Shown: one piece after another, positions 1 through 9,284 of the stretch
Numbering within the stretch: position 1 is the stretch's first letter
Layout of the letters: each line of letters begins with the position of its first letter
Sequence record: DRR723986_811
Direction: 5' to 3' (one strand)
DNA: 51,305 nucleotides
Position numbers and translations under genes: made by a program
Notes under the pieces: generated by a model
Database searches by the model: none
Told to the model about the DNA's origin: nothing
The model's input: only the letters and a program-made list of their open reading frames with translations

Positions 1-40
1 CCATCGCAATGGGCAGCGATCGTTTCGATTACGGCGAACA

Positions 41-813
41 CATGCCCAGCGACAGCGCCTTTTGTCTCTCGACCGGTGCTTCACCTGGCGCGGCGGCGTG
101 ATCTCACTGAGCGATTCGGAATCTCGACGGCACAGGCCGCAAACGATTTTCGGGCCTACCTGTCTCTGATCACTCAGAACACGCCGGAATATGACGCCCA
201 CCTGAAAGCCTATGTCGCAGCGCGAGATCATCAGCCGATTGCGCCTTCTTCGATGCTGGACCTATTCGGCGTTCTCGACACGACCTCGGGCGATGAGTTG
301 ACCGCTGCACTACTCCGCGAAAAGCGGTGGCTGTACCCATACGTCGCGACCGTGCTCCACGACGCCATCTCGAACCAGCGAAAAATCAGAATCGCCTACA
401 CATAGATGAGCTCTGGTGAAACCGCCTCACAATGGGTCGCGCCAACACGGTTTATCTTCGATGGCGAGAGCATTCATTTCCGGGCCCACAGCTACAAACG
501 CGGCGAGTACCGGAACTTTCATCCTGCCAGGATCGAACCGGAGAATGAGTTCCAATCAGGAGAGATCGAGGCGCCGTTGCCTCTGAATTCCGAATGGCAC
601 ACGCTGAGCATCATCTGGCTCAGGCCAAGCGCGCGGCTCAGCGCCGCGCAAGCCGCTGTTGTTCGAAGAGAGTATGGCTTCAGCGAGGATCTCCTGAAAG
701 TCGAATTGCGCAAGGCGCTCGAGTTCTATCTGGACCGGCGCTGGGGGTAGAATGAAGCGGGTGCGAGACTGGAACGCGTCCGCACGGAGTATCTTCCAAT
801 CGAAGCAGGTTGA
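41..813 (+). pseudogene. CapW/BrxR-like WYL-domain transcriptional regulator, disrupted
   Basis: The frame at 41 reads HAQRQRLLSLDRCFTWRG, then shifts frame into RRDLTERFGISTAQAANDFRAY (wHTH). IAYT*MSSG has TAG at 403-405 where Y-x-S-M-S-S is expected. The WYL core follows (APTRFIFDGESIHFRAHSYKRGEYRNFHPARI), then a second TAG at 748-750 and an open frame to TGA 811-813. The true start is unclear. Confidence 0.8.
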
Positions 814-922
814 CCAGAATATTCCCGATCAGGCATTTTATTCGAATATGGTGCGCTCTTGAAAGAAATCTTCCCGAACGGAATGCGGATACATGCTTTA
901 TGGAGCTGTATCGAAGCATCCA

Positions 923-1837
923 TTAACGCAGCAGAGTGTCCAGGCTTGTCCGCTGCGCGGCGTGCTTTTCCGGGTTCGTGTTGCGCAGTTTCAGGATGTT
1001 CTGCAGCTTCCACTGGACAGCGGGTAGGTCTGCAGCGGACGGTAATCCGATGGCGTCGAAGTCCGGTTCGCCTTCGACCAGCGTTCGCAGAAATCGTGCG
1101 GCATTGCCGGTCAGAAGGGACCGGACGTCGTCAATGAGCCTGATCCGGACTTGCTCCAGTTCAGCCACGCTGACCGCATCGACGGTCATGCCGGAAAACT
1201 CAGCCTCGAAGACCTTTTTTAACGGAGCGAGGTTCGGGTTCAGCAATTCATGCGGAGGTCGGCCGGAGCTTGCGACATAGATGAGGAAGGCCCGGAGGAG
1301 ATCATCCGTGATGCCCTCATTCTCGTAAAGCAGCTTCACATCGAACAGATCGCGCGGGTGCTGACGGTCAAGCGCGGCATGAAGCTTGCCGGCATAGAGA
1401 TCCTCGAACGCGACCAGTCTTGTCTCTGCAAACCCGAATTCATCCTCGACCGCTGGTGAGACACGTTTGGTTTCGGGCTCGAAGACCACGCCACGTGTCA
1501 CAGGGGAGGTTTCGACTTTCACGGTCGCAGACCCGCGCCGGAAAAGGACGCGGGTTGCGCCTCTGCCACCGCCTGCGATCCTGCTTGCGGTCACGCCTCG
1601 CACTTTCGAGCCTGCCGCAGCGATGCAGTCCATGGCGGCGTCGATGTCCGCAAGGGACTACACGCGGTCCCTGATCGGAAGGAAGGTCAGATCGACATCG
1701 ACCGACAGGCGCGGAAGATCACGATAGAACAGGTTGATCGCCGTGCCGCCTTTCAGGGCGAACTCTTCCTCTGCCGCTGCGGCTGGCAGAATATCAACGA
1801 GCAGCCGGACCTGATCAACATATCGCTCACGCGCCAT
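923..1837 (-). pseudogene. abiEii: AbiEii-family nucleotidyltransferase toxin (type IV TA), interrupted by an in-frame TAG at 1658-1660
   Basis: FALKGGTAINLFYRDLPRLSVDVDL and LYAGKLHAALDRQHPRDLFD motifs. ORFs 1658-1849 and 923-1633 are in the same frame, separated by one stop and 8 sense codons (SLADIDAA). Confidence 0.88.
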
Positions 1838-2624
1838 GACGAGCCTCACTTTGCGGCATCAGCTCAGGCGGCACTGAGATCGCGTAACGCGGATGAAACT
1901 GTCCCCTTTCAAAAAGGGCGCGAGGCCCCGAGCCGAGCTCGAACCGCTCGGGCGAGAGATGTCGCCGCCAGGCATGTCCATGCTTGTCGGCAAAGACGAA
2001 AAAGAGCCGCTTGACCTTGATGCTGGTGCAGGACGCCAGCAGTGTTTCCAGTCTGCGGGGGCGCGCGGAGGCGAGGCCTTCAAAGGCCGTATCGACGATA
2101 TGAACGCTCTCATGCTTCGGCAGCTCATCCAGCAGTTCGAGGATCGCGCGTTCCGGCGTTGAACATTTCAGTGGACCAGCCGGGGAGTCGACATCCGTCG
2201 TTTCCTCATCATCGTTCATGTCGAACAGTTTGGTGCTGTGCAGCCGGTAGCGGCCAGCCTCATCCAGCCGCTTGAGCCAACTCGGATGCGCATCGCCATA
2301 AAGGTGGACATCCTGAGCGCCGCGCATCGGCAGATAATGGGCGAACCCTTGCAGCTCCAGCGCGGTCCATCCGCCGACAACCGATGAATAGTCCATGACG
2401 TGCTGCAGCGAGCGCACAACGAGTTGCCAGTCTGCGCTGCGAGCGTCAGCCTGCGGACGTCGGTAAAGGCCGCGCACGACCGGTTCGAGCCAACCACTGT
2501 CTATGTATTTATGGGCGAGCATGCGCGTGATGCCATGACGCTGCAGCGTCTGCGTATCGACCAGCCGACCTGGCAGAACGGTCTCAAGCAGCCATTTTAG
2601 CTTTGTCTCGCTTTGTCGCCTCAT
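1827..2624 (-). CDS. abiEi: AbiEi-family antitoxin / transcriptional regulator (AbiEi_3-like)
   Basis: KLKWLLETVLPGRLVD...SGWLEPVVRGLY and STPERAILELLDELP...CTSIKVKRLF motifs. Lies upstream of abiEii and overlaps its start. Confidence 0.88.
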   Translation of the reverse strand: MRRQSETKLKWLLETVLPGRLVDTQTLQRHGITRMLAHKYIDSGWLEPVVRGLYRRPQADARSADWQLVVRSLQHVMDYSSVVGGWTALELQGFAHYLPMRGAQDVHLYGDAHPSWLKRLDEAGRYRLHSTKLFDMNDDEETTDVDSPAGPLKCSTPERAILELLDELPKHESVHIVDTAFEGLASARPRRLETLLASCTSIKVKRLFFVFADKHGHAWRRHLSPERFELGSGPRALFERGQFHPRYAISVPPELMPQSEARHGA

Positions 2625-2631
2625 GGGATAC

Positions 2632-2659
2632 AAAATAGACAAATTTCGAAATTTGGCAA
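2632..2659 (-). promoter_or_regulatory. Probable abiE promoter (TTGCCA-N16-TATTTT) with a perfect 16-bp palindromic operator CAAATTTCGAAATTTG (2640-2655)
   Basis: Seen directly. The -10-like hexamer ends 7 nt before the ATG and there is no Shine-Dalgarno. AbiEi proteins are known to autorepress via promoter inverted repeats. Confidence 0.65.
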
Positions 2660-2927
2660 GCTCAGGGTTTTGAATACATCGCACTTGGTAAACCCAAGGG
2701 ATACGAAATAACGGGCGATCAAAGCGCCCCAAGGACGGGCCTGTCGCCATGCCGCTGACTTGCCGCCGTTCCCACAGTCAAACCAAGAAATGTCTGAGAC
2801 GGGCACCCAAGCGCTCAGTCTTCGTTTCAATGGGAGAGAATGGTCCGGTCGAGAGGAACCAGCTCGAACCGCACCGCAACCATGAGCGCGATTCATTTGA
2901 GCGCAGAGACACGGGATCAAACAGGAA

Positions 2928-3265
2928 TGGTGCGGACGGCGGGACTCGAACCCGCACGGGGATACCCCCGACAGATTTTCTTACCAACTACGGTTTTCAC
3001 CGCCGACGCCCAGGCTGCAGAAGCAAAAGGCACCGTTTGTGGTCTGGACTATCCCTTCATCATAGTCAGCGCGCTGACCTTAGATGCTGCCCGTCTAGTC
3101 TCTACACCTTCCGGGCTTTCGCCAGGCTTGGCTCGGGATTGGCATCGGTCCGATCTGGACCCTTAGCTTTCCCCGAATTTGAGCAGTTCTACGCCCGGCA
3201 TTTCCACCGGGGCACTCAATCACATGGTTTAAGTCTGTTGTGTCTACCGATTCCACCACGTCCGC
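2928..3265 (-). tRNA. tRNA-Leu(UAA) split by a group I intron; exons 3265-3231 and 2979-2928, 87 nt spliced, CCA encoded
   Basis: The spliced sequence folds fully: acceptor GCGGACG/CGUCCGC-A-CCA, D arm GUG/CAC, anticodon arm ACAGA-CUUAAAA-UCUGU, long variable arm, T arm GCGGG-UUCGAGU-CCCGC. Confidence 0.95.
2980..3230 (-). ncRNA. Group I self-splicing intron (IC3-like, 251 nt, no ORF) between anticodon positions 34 and 35
   Basis: The 5' exon ends in U and the intron ends in G. P1 is ACUU^AA/UUGAGU with a U.G wobble at the splice site. Core elements: P (AAAUUCGGGGAA), Q (CAAUCCCGAGC), R (GUAGAGACUAGA), S (GAAGGGAUAGUCC); P7 GACUA/UAGUC; P8 hairpin GUCAGC/GCUGAC. Confidence 0.93.
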
Positions 3266-3407
3266 TTGCAAGGCCTTCTAACTGCATTGGCTCCCATTTG
3301 GCACCCAGTCTTCAGCAACTGCAAATTTTGCATTCTTCTAAGCGCCCGACAACTCCCTGTTCTTGTTTCACTTTTTTACTCGACCCCGTGCAGGCGTGTA
3401 GGGGTGA

Positions 3408-3452
3408 CAACAGATTTTAAGTCCCCTGTGTCTACCATTCCACCAAGCGCGC
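3408..3452 (-). pseudogene. 5' half of an intron-less tRNA-Leu(UAA) fused to a foreign anticodon 3' strand; probable att junction
   Basis: Minus strand reads GCGCGCT TG GTG GAATGGTAGA CAC A GGGGA CTTAAAA TCTGT TG. The stem GGGGA/TCTGT mispairs, and no complete T arm or acceptor 3' strand follows. Confidence 0.85.
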
Positions 3453-3634
3453 GAACCGTCTGGTTGCTTTTCTGGCATATACGCCCATTCCGCCACAACA
3501 CCATGTGTCATCGTGGGCAAACTGTGTATTTCCATCAGACAAAAGCGGGGGGTGAAACGCGCCGGGGTGGACTTGGCAGACCTTGCCGGGCGATGTTGCG
3601 CGGCGAGTGACGCAACCGCCCACCGGAGGAACCC

Positions 3635-4069
3635 ATGCTAAAAGCCCTGCCCTTCTTTTGGTTCCTGCTGGCGGCGCTGGGGGCAGCGGCGCAGCTGTTC
3701 GTGGCCCGCATGGCGGGCGGGGATGCCATGGGCACGATGCTGATCAGCGCCGCATCCAACGTGCTGATGACAACCATCAGCACGATCGGCATGGCGCTGG
3801 TCTATCTACTGATCCTGCGCACGCGCCCATCGCTGTCCGTCGCGATTGTCGGCTACAGCCATTTCTTCCTGGCCTGCGCCGCCTATACCGGCCAGACAAT
3901 CGGCACGCTGGAGCGCAACCGCTACCTGGCCGGGACGGGAGACATGACGTCCCTGAGCTTCGCCTACACTGCGGGCGGCCTCGCCAGCCTGCTGGCAGGC
4001 ATTGTCTTCATCCTGGCGCTGATCGTGGCGCTGAACACGCGCCACGAACGCCTTGAGGATATTTTCTAG
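3635..4069 (+). CDS. Hypothetical membrane protein
   Basis: GGAGG RBS, about four hydrophobic helices, stop overlaps the thiolase stop. Confidence 0.75.
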   Translation: MLKALPFFWFLLAALGAAAQLFVARMAGGDAMGTMLISAASNVLMTTISTIGMALVYLLILRTRPSLSVAIVGYSHFFLACAAYTGQTIGTLERNRYLAGTGDMTSLSFAYTAGGLASLLAGIVFILALIVALNTRHERLEDIF

Positions 4070-5277
4070 ACGACGCGCTCGAACACCGCCGCGAGGCCCT
4101 GCCCGCCGCCGATGCACATGGTCTCAACGCCATAGCGGGCTTCGCGGCGGTCCATCTCACGCAGCAGCGTGGTCAGGATGCGCACGCCCGTACAACCGAC
4201 CGGGTGGCCCAGCGAGATGCCGGAACCGTTGACGTTCAGGCGGGTCATGTCGTCATCGCTGAAGTTCAGCGCCTTGGTGCAGGCGAGCACCTGCGAGGCG
4301 AAAGCTTCGTTCAATTCGAACAGGTCGATGTCCTTCAGTTCCAGCCCGGCGCGTGCCATCGCTTTTTCCGAGGACGGAACGGGTCCAATGCCCATGACTT
4401 CCGGGCCGACACCGGCCACCTGCCAGGACAGCATCCGGCCAAGCGGCTTCAGGCCATAATTGTCTGCCGCTTCGCGCGTACAGACGATGCAGGCCGCCGC
4501 GCCATCGTTCTGGCCGGAAGCGTTACCTGCCGTGACAGTCGCATCCGGATCTGCCTTGCCGCGAATGGCACGAAGAGAGGAAAGTTTCTCCAGCGTGGAA
4601 TCGGCGCGGATATGCTCGTCCTTGTCCACCACCGTGTCAGCCTTGCGGCCCTTCACCGTGAACGGAATGATCTCGTCATCGAACTTGCCAGCGGCCTGCG
4701 CGGCGGCGGCCTTCTGGTGCGAGTTGTAGGCGAACTCGTCCTGTGCTTCGCGGGTGATCTGGTAGTCACGGCGGAGGTTCTCTGCCGTCTCGATCATGCC
4801 GCCCGGCACGGGGTGGTACTTGCCGCCAGCCGTGTAACGCCCGCGGGAGAGGCCATCATGCAGCATCAGGCCATCGCCCTTGATGTCCCAGCGCATATCG
4901 ATGGAGAAGAAGGGCGCATTCGACATGCTCTCTGCTCCGCCCGCGATGACGAGGTCGTTCGCGCCGGACCCGACCTGCATGATCGCATTGATCACCGCCT
5001 GCAGGCCTGAGCCGCAGCGGCGGTCGATCTGGTAGCCGCCGGTCGTCGTGGTCAGGCCTGCGTCCAAGGCCACCATCCGCCCGAAGGCCGGGGCTTCCAT
5101 GGTCGGGTAGCATTGTGCGAAAATGCAGTCTTCGACCGCCTCGGCCGGCAGGCCGGTGCGCTTCATCAGTTCACTGATGACATGACTCGCCATCTCATGG
5201 GCATGCACGGTCTTGAAGCTGCCGCCAAAGCCGCCGACCGCGGTACGTACGGGCTCGCAGATTACAACGTCTCTCAT
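4066..5277 (-). CDS. Acetyl-CoA C-acyltransferase (thiolase)
   Basis: RRCGSGLQA, NEAFA, GHPVG and CIGGGQG motifs. Confidence 0.95.
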   Translation of the reverse strand: MRDVVICEPVRTAVGGFGGSFKTVHAHEMASHVISELMKRTGLPAEAVEDCIFAQCYPTMEAPAFGRMVALDAGLTTTTGGYQIDRRCGSGLQAVINAIMQVGSGANDLVIAGGAESMSNAPFFSIDMRWDIKGDGLMLHDGLSRGRYTAGGKYHPVPGGMIETAENLRRDYQITREAQDEFAYNSHQKAAAAQAAGKFDDEIIPFTVKGRKADTVVDKDEHIRADSTLEKLSSLRAIRGKADPDATVTAGNASGQNDGAAACIVCTREAADNYGLKPLGRMLSWQVAGVGPEVMGIGPVPSSEKAMARAGLELKDIDLFELNEAFASQVLACTKALNFSDDDMTRLNVNGSGISLGHPVGCTGVRILTTLLREMDRREARYGVETMCIGGGQGLAAVFERVV

Positions 5278-5282
5278 CGGAA

Positions 5283-6065
5283 CTATCCTTGCTGGTCGCG
5301 GCCACGGGCGGTGACCTGTTTGCGGGCTTCCTCAACGGAATCGGCGGTGACGGAATTTGCGTGCTCGATCGAGCGGCGCACTTCTTCCTTCATCGCGTCA
5401 GCGAACGGCATGCCGAAGCCGTCATCGATCAGCGCCTTGTATTTCTTGAGCAGCACCGGCTGCGTATCACACATTTCATGGGCAAGCTTCATGGCTGCCG
5501 GCACGAGCTCGTCTGCCTTGTAGACGCGGTTCACGAGGCCCCAGCACTCCGACATTTCGGCATCGATGAAATTGCCGGTGAAGGAGAGTTCCTTGGCGCG
5601 GCTGATGCCGATGAGGCGCGAGAGTTTCTGCGACAGGCCCCAGCCCGGCACGATGCCGACGCGGGCATGCGTGTCAGCGAATTTCGCATTCTCGGAGGCA
5701 AGCAGCACATCGCACATCAGGGCGAGTTCAAATCCGCCGGTGATGGCAAAGCCGTTGATCGCGCCAATGATTGGCCACGGATAGGCTTCCATGGCGGCGA
5801 GGATATTGATCGCCTTGGAGTCTTCGTCTGCGCCAAGGGCGAAGCCGGTCTGGCCCGCCTCTTTCAGGTCGACGCCAGCAGTGAAGGCGCGGCCGGCGCC
5901 AGTCAACACGACGGCGCGGATCTCCGGATCGTCTTTCAGCTCCGTGAACACGCGCACGATTTCAGCGCGCAGCGCGCGGCTGAGCGCATTCAATGCGTCC
6001 GGCCGGTTGAGGGTCACAAGTGCAACGGGTCCGTCGCGCTCAACAAGAATGATGTCGTCAGCCAA
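5283..6065 (-). CDS. Enoyl-CoA hydratase/isomerase
   Basis: LNRPDALNAL, AFTAGVDL and GGFELALMCD crotonase motifs. Confidence 0.93.
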   Translation of the reverse strand: MADDIILVERDGPVALVTLNRPDALNALSRALRAEIVRVFTELKDDPEIRAVVLTGAGRAFTAGVDLKEAGQTGFALGADEDSKAINILAAMEAYPWPIIGAINGFAITGGFELALMCDVLLASENAKFADTHARVGIVPGWGLSQKLSRLIGISRAKELSFTGNFIDAEMSECWGLVNRVYKADELVPAAMKLAHEMCDTQPVLLKKYKALIDDGFGMPFADAMKEEVRRSIEHANSVTADSVEEARKQVTARGRDQQG

Positions 6066-6098
6066 GATGGCCTCCTTTGTTCGTCAGTCCGGGAATAT

Positions 6099-6587
6099 TC
6101 AGGCCTGCTTCCGGCGAAACAGGTTCACGATGGCAATGATCAGGGCAACGAGCGCAATCGCCGCAGCCAGGAATAACAGACCGAACTTCAGCGGCGTCAG
6201 CCATTCCTTGGCGTCCAGCACGTCAGCAGAGCCTTTCAGCGCCAGCGCCTGCACCGTGTTTTCGGTCAGGTCCACAATAATGGTCGCAAAGGCCGGCACG
6301 GCAGCGGCGGTGCCAAGGCTGCCGAAGAAACGCAGCGCCATTCCGGCAAGGAAGCCGCCATAGGCCAGCGGGTAAGCCGTATCGAGCAACACAGTCACCC
6401 AGAAGTGCACGTCGCGCTGCTCTGCGGTCATGCCCGCCACGATCTCGCGCGCCTGCACGGCGGAAGACGACATGTCGAGATAGGTGCCGCCGACGGCCTC
6501 GTTGAACACGCCGAATCCGGCACCGATCACGATCATCAGGACGAAAAGCGTCCAGATGACCGGTGTTCTCTTCAGGAATTGTGTCAT
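6099..6587 (-). CDS. Hypothetical membrane protein
   Basis: Four hydrophobic segments; translationally coupled to the upstream gene. Confidence 0.75.
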   Translation of the reverse strand: MTQFLKRTPVIWTLFVLMIVIGAGFGVFNEAVGGTYLDMSSSAVQAREIVAGMTAEQRDVHFWVTVLLDTAYPLAYGGFLAGMALRFFGSLGTAAAVPAFATIIVDLTENTVQALALKGSADVLDAKEWLTPLKFGLLFLAAAIALVALIIAIVNLFRRKQA

Positions 6588-7360
6588 GTATTGGCGTCCT
6601 CCAGCCGTTCGGGTCTTACGCCCGCTTGTTCGATGATCGCCGACAGTTTCGCGGCGACCTCTTCAATCAGCTCTTCATGGAGGGTGGAGGCGACGAGGTG
6701 CACGCCATTGTCGCCAACGGTCCGGAACCAGGGATAGGAGCCGAAGGAGACCTGCGGCATTTCCTTGGCCAGCGCGCCCAGCGGCTCGGCAATGTCCCCT
6801 TCCCTGAGGCCCGTGCCGCGGATCGTGATCTTGTGAACGACCGCGCCGGTTTCGAGGCGCGGGCCGATGTCTTCCAGCATGGCGCGGGCGACCTGCGGCA
6901 CGCCGGCCAGCGTGAACACATTGCCCGTCTGGAAGCCTGGCGCGCCGGACACCGGATTGGCAACGACCGACGCCCCGTGCGGGATGCGCGCCATGCGCCG
7001 GCGGGCCGGCGTGTATTCCGTGCCCATGGCCTTGTAGCGTTCGGCCAGCATGGCGGTGACTTCCGGATGCTCCGAAATGCCGACCCCGAAGGCCTTGGCA
7101 ATGGCGTCCGCCGTGATGTCGTCATGCGTCGGGCCGATCCCACCCGTGGTGAAGACATAGGTGTATTTGGCCCGCAGATCGTTCACCGCCGCAACGATTT
7201 CCTCTTCGGTATCGCCCACCGTGCGGCTTTCCCGCACCGGGATGCCGAGCGGTGCCAGATAGGTCGCGATCTGCTGGAGATTGATGTCGCGGGTACGCCC
7301 GGACAGGATTTCATCTCCGATCAGGAGGACGGCGGCGGTGGGGGAACTTCGGTCAGTCAT
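6584..7360 (-). CDS. CinA-like molybdopterin-binding domain protein
   Basis: IGDEILSGRTRDIN and GGIGPTHDDIT motifs; no PncC C-terminal domain. Confidence 0.9.
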   Translation of the reverse strand: MTDRSSPTAAVLLIGDEILSGRTRDINLQQIATYLAPLGIPVRESRTVGDTEEEIVAAVNDLRAKYTYVFTTGGIGPTHDDITADAIAKAFGVGISEHPEVTAMLAERYKAMGTEYTPARRRMARIPHGASVVANPVSGAPGFQTGNVFTLAGVPQVARAMLEDIGPRLETGAVVHKITIRGTGLREGDIAEPLGALAKEMPQVSFGSYPWFRTVGDNGVHLVASTLHEELIEEVAAKLSAIIEQAGVRPERLEDANT

Positions 7361-7383
7361 GCCATTCCATCTCCCAAGCAGCG

Positions 7384-8724
7384 TCACTCTGCAAGCGCGC
7401 GATAAACGAGATCCGCAGATTCCGATCGCATGTCCCGGTCGAGACCGCCCGGAAACCGCTGGATCATACCGATAAAAAACAGGTCATTCACCGGGTCGAT
7501 CCAGAACCACGTCCCGGCAGCGCCGCCCCAGTAATAGACGCCCTGCGGCTGGCTCGCCCCGGTCAGCGACGGGTCGACAAAGACGGCAAAGTCCAGTCCG
7601 AAGCCAATCCCGGCCATATCCGGATTGGGGCTGACGCCATCGGAAAACAGGCTCACGCCGTCGGGCAGTACGTCGGTGCGCATCAGCTTCACCGTTTCCG
7701 GTTTCAGGATGCGGACGCCGTTCAGCTCGCCGTCATTGACCAGCATCTGGCTGAAACGGGCATAGTCGCCCATGGTCGAGACGAGGCCATGCCCGCCCTT
7801 TTCCATGCCGATCTCGCCTTTCCGGAATGCGAAGCCCGGCGCTTCAAGTGGTACCAGCTCGCCGGTCTCGGTGTCGGGCGTGAAAACTTCGGAGAAGCGG
7901 TCGCGTTTCTCTTCAGGCACATAGAAGCCGGTATCCATCATGCCGAGCGGCGCAAAGACTTCATCCTGAAGGTATTGGCCAAACGGCTTCCCGCTCAGCT
8001 TCTGGACGATATAGCCCTGCACATCGACAGACGTGCTGTAGGCCCAGCTGGTGCCCGGCTGGTAGAGCAGCGGTACAGTAGCGAGCCGTGAGATGTAGGT
8101 TTCGAGATCCGGGGCCCCCAGCACGTCCGCCTCCGCGAACATGTTGTTGACCGGATCGTCACTGAACAGGCCGTAGGCGAATCCGGCGGTGTGGCTCATC
8201 AGTTCACGCATCGTTGCTGGCCGGTCGGTGTTGACGAGGATAGGTTCCCCGGCCTCATCGAAGCCCTCGAACACTTTCAGACCGGCCAGTTCCGGAATGA
8301 ATTTCGTGATCGGATCATCCAGGCTGAACGCGCCGTCATCATAGAGCGTCATCAGCGCCACGCCGGTGACCGGCTTGGACATGGAATAGATCCGGAAGAT
8401 CGTGTCCTCGGTAATGGCCGCCTGATCGGTCGTGCGGCGGATGCCGTACTGGTCGTAATTGATGACCTGTCCGTCCTTCACCAGCAGGGTGGAAACGCCC
8501 CTGACCATCCCGTCATCGACCGCCTGACGCATGGCGCTATCCAGCGCGGCCAGTCCGCTGGCGGAAAATCCGGCTGGAGATTCCGCTGCCTCCAGCTGGT
8601 CAAACGTGATGGCGTCCGGTTCCTCCGCCCCGGCAGTGGTAAGGGCCGTCAGGCTCAAAATGGCCAAAGACGACAGAAAGACACTTGGACGCCAGTTCAC
8701 CGGATGCTCCTCCCAGCCCCTCAT
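7384..8724 (-). CDS. Serine hydrolase, beta-lactamase-like family, secreted
   Basis: FRIYSMSK (SxxK), LMSHTAG and WGGAAGTWFWIDP motifs; signal-peptide-like N-terminus. Start uncertain. Confidence 0.9.
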   Translation of the reverse strand: MRGWEEHPVNWRPSVFLSSLAILSLTALTTAGAEEPDAITFDQLEAAESPAGFSASGLAALDSAMRQAVDDGMVRGVSTLLVKDGQVINYDQYGIRRTTDQAAITEDTIFRIYSMSKPVTGVALMTLYDDGAFSLDDPITKFIPELAGLKVFEGFDEAGEPILVNTDRPATMRELMSHTAGFAYGLFSDDPVNNMFAEADVLGAPDLETYISRLATVPLLYQPGTSWAYSTSVDVQGYIVQKLSGKPFGQYLQDEVFAPLGMMDTGFYVPEEKRDRFSEVFTPDTETGELVPLEAPGFAFRKGEIGMEKGGHGLVSTMGDYARFSQMLVNDGELNGVRILKPETVKLMRTDVLPDGVSLFSDGVSPNPDMAGIGFGLDFAVFVDPSLTGASQPQGVYYWGGAAGTWFWIDPVNDLFFIGMIQRFPGGLDRDMRSESADLVYRALAE

Positions 8725-8843
8725 CGGAGACTTTTTTCCTTGGTTGAGAGCACCCTACAGAAATCGGACGCCGCGCGCCAAGCCGGAACGTTGCGGCATG
8801 TCACGCATTGTTTCTCCAGATCCTGCAACGAAAGGAGATCCCC

Positions 8844-9284
8844 ATGAAACGCACCGCCACTGCCGTCTGGAAAGGCAACCTGCGCGAAGGTACCGGCACG
8901 CTCGGCACGCAGAGCGGCGCCCTTGCCGACCACCCCTATTCCTTCAAGGCCCGGTTTGAGGATGAAAGCGGCAAGTCCGGCACCAATCCGGAGGAATTGC
9001 TGGCCGCCGCGCATGCCGGCTGTTTCACCATGCAGCTCTCCCACCTGCTGGCCGAGGCGGGTCATCCGGCGGAACGGTTGCACACCGAGGCCACCGTCTC
9101 GGTCGAGCCCAAGGATGGCGGCGGCTTCCAGATCACGCGCAGCGTGCTTGCGCTTGAGGCAAAGGTGTCGGGCATTGAATCCGACGTGTTCGAGGCGATC
9201 GCCGGCAAAGCCAAGGCCGGATGCCCCGTCTCCGTTGCGCTTGGCGCCATCGAAATCACGCTCGAGATGACGCTCGACAGCTGA
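8844..9284 (+). CDS. osmC: OsmC-family peroxiredoxin
   Basis: [16 protein letters not shown] and AKAGCPVS motifs; AGGAG RBS. Confidence 0.9.

Follow-up and report, generated by a model that had tools for sequence, protein, structure and literature searches.

A putative integrative element that splits the host tRNA-Leu(UAA) gene in its anticodon loop and carries a whole, intron-containing tRNA-Leu(UAA) gene

A split tRNA-Leu(UAA) gene and a complete one in tandem

We analyzed a stretch of 51,305 nucleotides from sequence record DRR723986_811 (the window), in which the 5' half of a tRNA-Leu(UAA) gene is followed, on the minus strand, by a complete tRNA-Leu(UAA) gene that harbors a group I intron (Table 1). 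Comparison with related genomes indicates that positions 2928 to 3452 very probably represent the left attachment site (attL) where an integrative element meets a Hyphomonas-like chromosome; the host gene would have been split by this element, which carries a whole tRNA gene of its own. This anatomy is strongly supported, through relatives rather than through the window itself. The original prediction, made from the letters of the window, held that the element crosses over in the anticodon loop, leaves its target unrestored, and carries a whole, co-oriented replacement gene, a proposal that the comparison with relatives supports.

Read on the minus strand, positions 3452 to 3413 consist of GCGCGCTTGGTGGAATGGTAGACACAGGGGA followed by CTTAAAATC and are identical to positions 1 to 40 of the intact tRNA at four Hyphomonas loci, L001 to L004. 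This half gene had been placed at 3452 to 3408; it is present, with an end coordinate (3408) that was 2 nt off. Downstream of the core CTTAAAATC, the sequence reads TGT.. (TCTGT, positions 3414 to 3410) where the host tRNA has CCCC, and indeed the TCTGT that stands after the loop instead of the host stem strand does not pair, as had been noticed. What follows the core at the half gene (TGTTGTCACCCC..) is without a variable arm, a T arm, or an acceptor 3' strand, the disrupted tRNA is not regenerated, and ARAGORN called no tRNA at the half-gene junction of either the window or the occupied Hyphomonas genome G001 described below. The 9-mer occurs once in the 51-kb window (0.11 occurrences expected by chance) and stands at neither intron junction of the complete gene at 3265 to 2928, confirming that the core is missing from both DNA junctions of that gene.

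Between the core and the complete gene lies the presumed P' arm of the element's attachment site (attP). Homologous spacers in the related genomes G131, G001, and G208 measure 147 to 151 nt (156 to 160 nt including the 9-nt core), and all of them begin with TGT. We considered this arm as a decayed tRNA 3' half and rejected the idea: its likeness to a T arm is weak in the window and in G131 (p ~0.03) and not significant in G001 and G208 (p 0.23 and 1.0), and two of these four copies are not independent.

Empty and occupied sites in Hyphomonas

A 35-nt pattern taken from the half gene found five loci in the genome collection, all in Hyphomonas. Four of them, L001 to L004, harbor an intact tRNA-Leu(UAA) that past its first 40 nt reads CCCATCCTTCGGGAGTGTGGGTTCGAGTCCCACAGCGCGCACCA. 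The flank of the window, from position 3453 on, directly adjoins the tRNA at these sites, with identities of 88.5% (L001), 91% (L002), and 82% (L003), and of 92% at the fifth locus (L005). The intact tRNA that had been expected beside the 3635 open reading frame (ORF) in island-free relatives was found at L001 to L004, with the same flanking genes.

The fifth locus, in G001, is occupied. Here the same half runs through CTTAAAATC into TGTCGG.. and a diverged spacer, after which comes an intron-containing tRNA gene 87% identical to that of the window. About 46.4 kb away on this contig, ..GGCACG-CTTAAAATC leads into the host 3' half. When the left side of attL in G001 is joined to the right side of the right attachment site (attR), the result is exactly the L001 tRNA, and the two sites differ from the intact target site (attB) only outside the 9-bp core. 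The integrase of this element (426 aa; Phage_integrase, PF00589, 9.5e-17; Arm-DNA-bind_3, 8.2e-16) has its start roughly 140 bp from attR and is oriented away from that site. The element further encodes VirB4/VirB6/VirB8/VirB9/VirB10-type proteins, a MobA/VirD2-type relaxase, a coupling protein, and defense-like cargo, and is an integrative conjugative element (ICE). The host-type 3' half and the tyrosine integrase expected at the far end were thus found in G001, the far end of the window's own element being outside the sequence. To the left of the window, a host 3' half of the form CCCATCCTTCGGGAG..GCGCGCACCA would be expected to follow the core. One detail of the original prediction failed: where ACAGA had been predicted before the core of the reciprocal junction, the P arm is found instead (..GGCACG / ..AGCCCT).

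The intron-containing gene

ARAGORN run with introns allowed (-i) called tRNA-Leu(taa) c[2928,3265] i(36,251), and Intron_gpI (Rfam RF00028) matched positions 3240 to 3022 over its full model (1 to 253) with 42.8 bits and an E value of 2.4e-9 when an E-value threshold was applied. The ARAGORN call confirms the predicted complete tRNA-Leu(UAA) gene with an intron in its loop, and the ACAGA/TCTGT anticodon stem assigned to it is likewise correct. Default ARAGORN and an Rfam scan at the gathering threshold returned nothing in the whole window, in the case of Rfam because the score is below the threshold of 50.

We next aligned 26 intron-containing tRNA-Leu(UAA) genes, comprising that of the window, 10 from the family of G001, and 15 from metagenomes. 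Double compensatory changes were found in 41 of 82 consensus pairs. Covariation affects the acceptor stem, the peripheral intron helices, and the anticodon stem across the intron, where three of the five pairs change on both sides, while the intron core is nearly invariant. In all 26 sequences, the U at position -1 pairs with a G of the conserved TTGAGTGC guide (columns 35/51, U.G), and the intron-terminal G before AAAATC is equally invariant (26/26). The transcript would be expected to self-splice, and its product to decode UUA and UUG in place of the broken host tRNA.

No sigma-70-like promoter was found in 2700 to 3700; the replacement gene may be using the host tRNA promoter. No sequencing run contained at least half of the words sampled from the window. 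"Joints" of 2958-2969/3412-3413 in DNA metagenomes were considered as spliced forms and discarded, as other letters stand between the two sides, identifying them as intronless tRNA-Leu genes of other organisms.

Census of tRNA-Leu(UAA) genes

The original prediction would lose its ground if another intact tRNA-Leu(UAA) were present in the genome; none was found in a census of G001 by Rfam and ARAGORN. This genome has 41 matches to RF00005, among which ARAGORN recognized the leucine anticodons CAG, UAG, CAA, and GAG, with UAA coming only from the intron-containing gene; one weak RF00005 match (29.6 bits) was without an ARAGORN call. A pattern consisting of the D arm plus the loop had one match in each of four island-free genomes and two in G001, namely, the half gene and the intron-containing gene. 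The other CTTAAAATC sites of G131, G208, G260, and G112 were inspected as well, and none of them is a tRNA. That the intron cassette complements the broken host gene is thus strongly supported through the relatives. Deletion or imprecise loss of the element would then be penalized, which fits G131, where nearly everything except the tRNA is gone.

Elements with a related integrase

A search with the gene of the window in 262 genomes of the family of G001 yielded a full-length intron-containing tRNA in 10 of them: G131 (99% identity), G176 (93%), G001 (87%), G208 (84%), G209 (73%), G225 (73%), G248 (72%), G112 (71%), G184 (68%), and G260 (66%). Three of these (G131, G001, and G208) have the layout of the window, which we call class A, and the sequence after the core always begins with TGT. 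The class A integrase consists of an arm-binding domain and a catalytic domain. The core CTTAAAATC is present at both element ends in G001, G131, G208, and G260, and the window shows the left junction. Three different class A host halves were seen overall, GCGCGCT..GGGGA, GCCGGCG..GGGGA, and GCGGGCG..GCGGA. The closest relative is the G131 island, to which window positions 1733 to 3448 are 90% identical (99% in the tRNA) and whose host half differs. The same module thus stands in two hosts with differing tRNA-Leu genes, so that repair by a 3' half could not serve both, whereas a whole gene can. The module is about 80% identical to that of G001, and nothing else is common to the window and the G001 ICE.

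We then searched 401 sampled Alphaproteobacteria for relatives of the class A integrase (E ≤ 1e-70) and found them in four genomes, G001, G621, G460, and G265. Those of the last three all adjoin a tRNA-Leu(CAA) 3' half, and no intron-containing tRNA was detected by BLAST in G460, G621, or G265. G265, with a 38%-identical integrase, is classical: an intact tRNA-Leu(CAA) with an identical 3' part lies elsewhere, and the displaced 3' fragment stands beside the integrase. G621 shows a host 5' half, a spacer of about 150 nt, and an intronless whole tRNA-Leu(CAA) with the loop TTCAAAA versus CTCAAAA in the target; U32 of the cassette versus C32 of the target may be a point-mutation alternative to the intron. 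This element (L285, G621:C1:190276-193294, and L279) is about 92 kb long, encodes a 49%-identical class A integrase, and splits tRNA-Leu(CAA). G460 harbors two identically scoring class A-like integrases 59 kb apart (L280, C1:5120859, and L282, C1:5180002), each beside a different tRNA-Leu(CAA) 3' half. Also noted with this pair (L286 and L288) were a separate intact tRNA-Leu(CAA) and a host 5' half that runs into decayed tRNA-like sequence; the whole may represent tandem or nested elements.

Table 1. Positions of the features in the window and sizes of the class A elements in other genomes
Feature	Position or length	Strand	Details
Host tRNA-Leu(UAA) 5' half	3413..3452	-	Acceptor 5' strand, D arm, stem 5' strand GGGGA, loop; host side of the putative attL
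Crossover core CTTAAAATC	3413..3421	-	Anticodon loop + 2 nt; common to attB, attL, and attR
P' arm of attP (element DNA from core to replacement tRNA)	3266..3412	-	147 nt; starts TGT; no usable tRNA 3' half
Element tRNA-Leu(UAA), 5' exon	3231..3265	-	Ends at U34
Group I intron	2980..3230	-	251 nt; between U34 and A35; no ORF called
Element tRNA-Leu(UAA), 3' exon	2928..2979	-	AAAA of loop, stem TCTGT, long variable arm, T arm, acceptor, A73, CCA
AbiEi-type antitoxin/regulator (element cargo)	1827..2750	-	307 aa; Pfam AbiEi_3 1.2e-36, AbiEi_3_N 4.4e-23
AbiEii-type nucleotidyltransferase toxin (element cargo)	923..1633	-	236 aa; Pfam AbiEii 1.1e-22
Host-flank ORF	3635..4069	+	No family
Host-flank thiolase	4066..5277	-	Pfam Thiolase_N/C
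G001 element	46.4 kb		Integrase 426 aa, adjoins host 3' half
G208 element	31.7 kb		Integrase 74% identical to that of G001, adjoins host 3' half
G131 element	3.6 kb		No integrase; tRNA, AbiEi, HipA-type kinase; both att sites intact

Proposed mechanism and alternatives

We propose that a class A tyrosine integrase exchanged strands within CTTAAAATC, the loop of what is apparently the single host tRNA-Leu(UAA) gene. This would have left the 5' half of the host gene at the end seen in the window and the 3' half at the far end of the element. The complete tRNA-Leu(UAA) gene of the element, its loop split by the group I intron between U34 and A35, lies 147 nt downstream of the 5' half in the same orientation. 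Were the element to excise precisely (attL x attR), the host gene would be restored. A whole gene would free the element from having a 3' half that pairs with the 5' half of each host, and a conserved loop would suffice; such a loop-only requirement fits the very different host halves observed. The intron, for its part, would remove the loop motif from the element's own copy.

Several observations weigh against this reading. No match to the host 3' half was found in the window with up to three mismatches allowed, so that the far junction is not within it, and the window was equally devoid of the P-arm motif and, by tblastn, of class A integrases and of the class C integrases described below. 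The nearest relative of the module, in G131, is a 3.6-kb island without an integrase, and the copy in the window may be immobile. The Intron_gpI score of 42.8 bits is lower than the family gathering score of 50. Contigs from RNA libraries (two libraries, one study) cover 2832 to 3437 and 2929 to 3437 in unspliced form at 95 to 96% identity; these libraries may contain DNA, and the contigs show neither transcription nor splicing. Finally, the tRNA census combined Rfam and ARAGORN in G001 with short patterns elsewhere, and a tRNA-Leu(UAA) of unusual shape, or with an unusual sequence around its loop in the genomes checked by pattern, could escape it.

A variant that is compatible with the proposed integration is that the window contains a decayed, integrase-less island like that of G131, kept as the sole source of tRNA-Leu(UAA). 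We consider this a real possibility that falls somewhat short of probable. Indeed, the same module (99% in the tRNA, 90% overall) is found in the 3.6-kb island of G131, which retains both att sites but lacks an integrase, the cargo by the tRNA in the window consists of toxin-antitoxin genes only, and the module stands apart from that of the G001 ICE by its limited identity and by the lack of any other common part. The window ends 2.9 kb past the tRNA, however, and the full element may extend to the left. As neither the P-arm motif nor the host 3' half is found in 1 to 2927, the island must exceed about 3.4 kb.

It is very improbable that no integrase was involved and that the half gene is the product of gene conversion, a local duplication, or an assembly error. 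All that speaks for such an origin is that the window by itself displays a single junction. Against it stand the precise empty sites, the far-end halves that join to an exact host tRNA, the integrases located at the ends, and the recurrence of the arrangement, with different host halves, in independent assemblies and metagenomes. Nor is the two-piece arrangement due to chance: it recurs with three different host halves, and the intron-containing tRNA shows covariation. We hold integration in the loop to be the best and a very probable explanation.

A second integrase lineage

In G260 and G112, the host 5' half is followed by a recombinase of 429 and 457 aa, respectively, the intron-containing tRNA, and cargo, a layout that we call class C. 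The host 3' half of G260 lies 22.6 kb away, and a coupling protein is encoded among the genes of this element; in G112 the 3' half is on another contig. Class C and class A integrases share 22% identity over 79 aa. Neither a single class C sequence nor a 13-member profile matched an NCBIfam model or a PDB sequence. We nevertheless call them tyrosine recombinases because 11 of the 13 members match Pfam Phage_integrase at E ≤ 0.01 (best, 1e-5), and the proteins have SAM-like integrase domains and conserved R..RH..Y motifs.

To follow the module further, we used a 23-nt pattern of the intron core, which retrieved 13 viral and at least 120 metagenome loci. Among the matches listed, a class C integrase lies directly upstream of the intron-containing tRNA in 30 of these 133 loci and a class A integrase in none. 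Seventeen loci among the same matches have a near-complete integrase together with upstream sequence, and in 16 of them, the one exception being degenerate, a tRNA-Leu 5' half ends in the loop and gives way to AT-rich DNA. Great diversity is seen among the host halves. A tRNA 5' half together with an intron-containing tRNA, the pattern for which the original prediction proposed a survey, recurs in class A and class C elements.

Among the 401 Alphaproteobacteria, class C relatives occur in 21 genomes and the intron core pattern in 33. In eight of the 30 class C loci examined, the integrase is followed by an intron-containing tRNA-Leu(UAA), and seven of these eight show the host half. Thirteen (several loci overlap) have an intact tRNA-Met just upstream, the classical rebuilt arrangement, and one has a tRNA-Arg there. 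L272 (G351:C460) combines a tRNA-Leu(CAA) host half with an intronless whole tRNA-Leu(CAA) whose loop is the same as that of the target, and L261 (G407:C20) combines a tRNA-Leu(UAG) 3' half, inverted relative to the integrase, with an intronless whole tRNA-Leu(UAG). The remaining six (L257, L263, L267, L269, L271, and L273) show neither pattern. At L257 (G527:C6), the class C integrase adjoins the 5' part of an initiator-type tRNA-Met cut just after the anticodon stem, with no rebuilt gene and no replacement tRNA within 480 nt. Starting from the intron instead, 30 intron-core loci of the same genomes were examined, and 19 proved to be tRNA-Leu(UAA) introns; eight of the 19 are element borne (seven class C, one class A), while 11 are without an integrase or host half.

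The anticodon of the cargo tRNA matches that of the target in UAA, CAA (L242, L272, and G621), and UAG (L261) elements. L242 and L180, both from metagenomes, have a class C integrase followed by an intron-containing tRNA-Leu(CAA) with C at position -1 (a Watson-Crick C.G pair in P1); a tRNA-Leu(CAA) 5' half stands upstream of the integrase in L242, and L180 gave a partial integrase match and showed no host half. In the class C element L255 (G565:C1), ARAGORN calls the host 5' half plus the P' arm (1301 to 1377, integrase forward) as a 77-nt "tRNA-Leu(taa)." A T arm and CCA are preserved in this P' arm, but a long variable arm is missing and the acceptor stem is mismatched; the arm is probably the relic of a former repairing 3' half.

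Role of the intron

Why the replacement gene should contain an intron can be read in two ways. In the first, selection keeps the intron since it removes the integrase target from the element's own tRNA gene, so that attP does not recombine with this copy and no attB is left in the cell for rival elements. The core is indeed absent from both intron junctions, and a DNA copy of the spliced form would have 12 nt (window) to 15 nt (G001) in common with the attP core plus P' arm. The integrase accepts targets with the stems GGGGA/TCCCC, GGGGA/TCCCT, and GCGGA/TCCGC, and little protection would therefore be expected from the ACAGA/TCTGT stem of the element itself. In the samples assembled from the integrase, all eight class C loci with a tRNA-Leu(UAA), seven of them with a host 5' half, as well as G001 carry the intron, and just 11 further intron-containing tRNA-Leu(UAA) loci without such an integrase occur among the 30 loci from the 401 genomes. 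The intron is found with both integrase lineages, distant as they are, and a protective role has been put forward for an archaeal element (PMC3293823). On the other hand, whole replacement genes without an intron occur in these integrase lineages as well (L272 and G621 for Leu-CAA, L261 for Leu-UAG), and the elements share ancestry, so that nine out of nine do not amount to nine independent events. We therefore regard selection for protection as possible without counting it as probable.

In the second, the intron was already present in the captured ancestral tRNA-Leu(UAA) and is neutral, the whole-gene replacement having been selected for host range. We give this close to an even chance. It would account for intron-containing genes with no split host gene or nearby integrase (G176, G209, G225, G248, and G184), two of which, G225 and G248, share upstream synteny, and for the 11 of 19 alphaproteobacterial loci that lack a class A or class C integrase. 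Furthermore, thousands of such introns have been mapped across phyla (Williams 2020, bioRxiv 10.1101/2020.01.27.920355), and intronless replacement cassettes appear to work for CAA and UAG. Yet native intron-containing tRNA-Leu(UAA) genes are rare, while every UAA-type element seen has the intron, in two integrase lineages, and the intron persisted when the anticodon of the cassette became CAA (L242 and L180, the C-1 type).

A broader proposal, which we hold to be rather unlikely as it stands, is that of a portable "target-replacement cassette" employed by integrative elements from two or more integrase lineages: these would break tRNA-Leu at its universally conserved anticodon loop, bring a whole tRNA that makes any host suitable, and keep the intron to close the site to their own and to rival integrases. 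If this were true, elements rather than vertical descent would explain much of the patchy spread of tRNA-Leu introns outside cyanobacteria, including the copy in the resistance regions of the 1267 plasmids described below.

Relation to known systems

Williams reportedly defined, in 2002, sublocation classes of the islands that target tRNA and tmRNA genes. According to the abstract of the Islander report (PMC4383910), the classical rule is that island sequence restores the split gene. The elements described here resemble classical tRNA-targeting islands and ICEs in that a tyrosine integrase crosses over in a tRNA gene, in this case in the anticodon loop, and in having a short direct repeat at their ends, precise empty sites in relatives, and, in G001, conjugation genes. 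They differ in that the P' arm of the element provides no tRNA 3' half: the host gene remains split into 5' and 3' halves, and a separate whole gene replaces it. Also unlike in classical islands, the class A integrase adjoins the displaced 3' half and not a rebuilt gene. The cassettes of G621, L272, and L261 are similar to that of the window: half of a host tRNA-Leu marks the junction, the gene is not rebuilt, and beside attL or the integrase the element brings a whole tRNA-Leu with the same anticodon. Unlike that of the window, these cassettes are intronless.

The tRNA-Leu introns have been typed by Williams (2020, bioRxiv 10.1101/2020.01.27.920355), who distinguishes Leu.3Ug from the proteobacterial Leu.3Cg. 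The intron of the window resembles Leu.3Ug in its position between U34 and A35, the U-1.G pair in P1, the terminal G, and the conserved core, and the CAA-type cassettes L242 and L180 have C-1 like Leu.3Cg, here on elements. The main text of that study, its table and supplements aside, maps introns and makes no mention of integrative elements or of the replacement of broken genes. A closer parallel comes from Archaea. In the work of Sugahara et al. (2012, PMC3293823), the attP of an archaeal element brings a protein-spliced intron into a rebuilt tRNA-Thr gene, and the authors suggest, citing Randau and Soll (2008), that such an intron might shield the element, once integrated, against additional invasions. 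Both systems have an element-delivered intron at a tRNA attachment site, which in our case splits the 9-bp core of the element-borne gene; the archaeal intron is protein spliced, lies at 24/25, and comes with a rebuilt gene, whereas here a group I intron sits in a separate whole gene and the host gene is broken. The accessible sections of a review on bacterial group I introns (PMC3984707) draw no link to integrases. In the literature searched, with subscription journals and supplements largely outside coverage, we found no description of a bacterial module made of an integrase and an intron-tRNA replacement. An archaeal analogue and the hypothesis of a protective intron have already been published; what the present elements add is replacement of the target, instead of its repair, by an integrative element that enters a tRNA gene.

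Unlike a textbook island that repairs its target gene, such an element makes the cell dependent on an element-borne, intron-containing copy of the tRNA, and its host range would require the conserved loop alone. Island finders keyed to an intact tRNA and a displaced 3' fragment may miss these elements or misplace their borders, and tRNA annotation is affected too, as default scans see no tRNA-Leu(UAA) in the window. The module is common, as judged from the 30 of 133 intron-core loci among the matches listed and the eight loci in the 401 sampled Alphaproteobacteria. It also offers a tractable bacterial system for the protective-intron hypothesis, which has so far been argued mainly for Archaea.

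Neighboring genes and further copies of the intron-containing tRNA

Along the minus strand, the order is the flank with the thiolase and ORF, a conserved upstream region, the half gene, the 147-nt spacer, the intron-containing tRNA, AbiEi, and AbiEii (Table 1). The AbiEii gene is not common to the G131 or G001 elements. The G+C content is 55 to 62% on the element side (window positions 1 to 3300) versus 59 to 66%, mostly 60 to 66%, in the host flank (3600 to 9000). A 446-aa protein matching Pfam Beta-lactamase (2.7e-68) is encoded at 7384 to 8724 on the minus strand, among host fatty-acid genes; this family is a broad one of serine hydrolases, and the match implies no resistance role.

Apparently complete, unannotated copies of an intron-containing tRNA-Leu(UAA), about 69% identical to that of the window, were found in 1267 PLSDB plasmids (Escherichia, 486; Klebsiella, 357; Salmonella, 114; Acinetobacter, 78; and others), for example, at L290 5001-5297 (E. 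coli LR890263.1) and L291 4001-4298 (K. pneumoniae NZ_KT818627.1). The plasmid copy sits between small hypothetical ORFs and the genes for an AAA ATPase and aac(3)-IId. About 165 nt upstream of this tRNA, the sequence ..GCGGA-CTTAAAA-AGTCTTTTTCTACCATCC.. resembles the P' arm of the G621 element, and the plasmid copy looks like the captured end of such an element. On the Bradyrhizobium plasmid NZ_CP094524.1 (L292, 4033 to 4804), the C-terminal remnant of a class C integrase and an unannotated intron-containing tRNA-Leu(UAA) lie beside the IncP-type trb genes of this 317-kb conjugative plasmid. Lastly, on three viral contigs of 143 to 281 kb (L119, L124, and L127), the intron core lies inside arrays of tRNA genes, where ARAGORN labels the gene that contains it SeC(tca), probably owing to a misplaced splice site.

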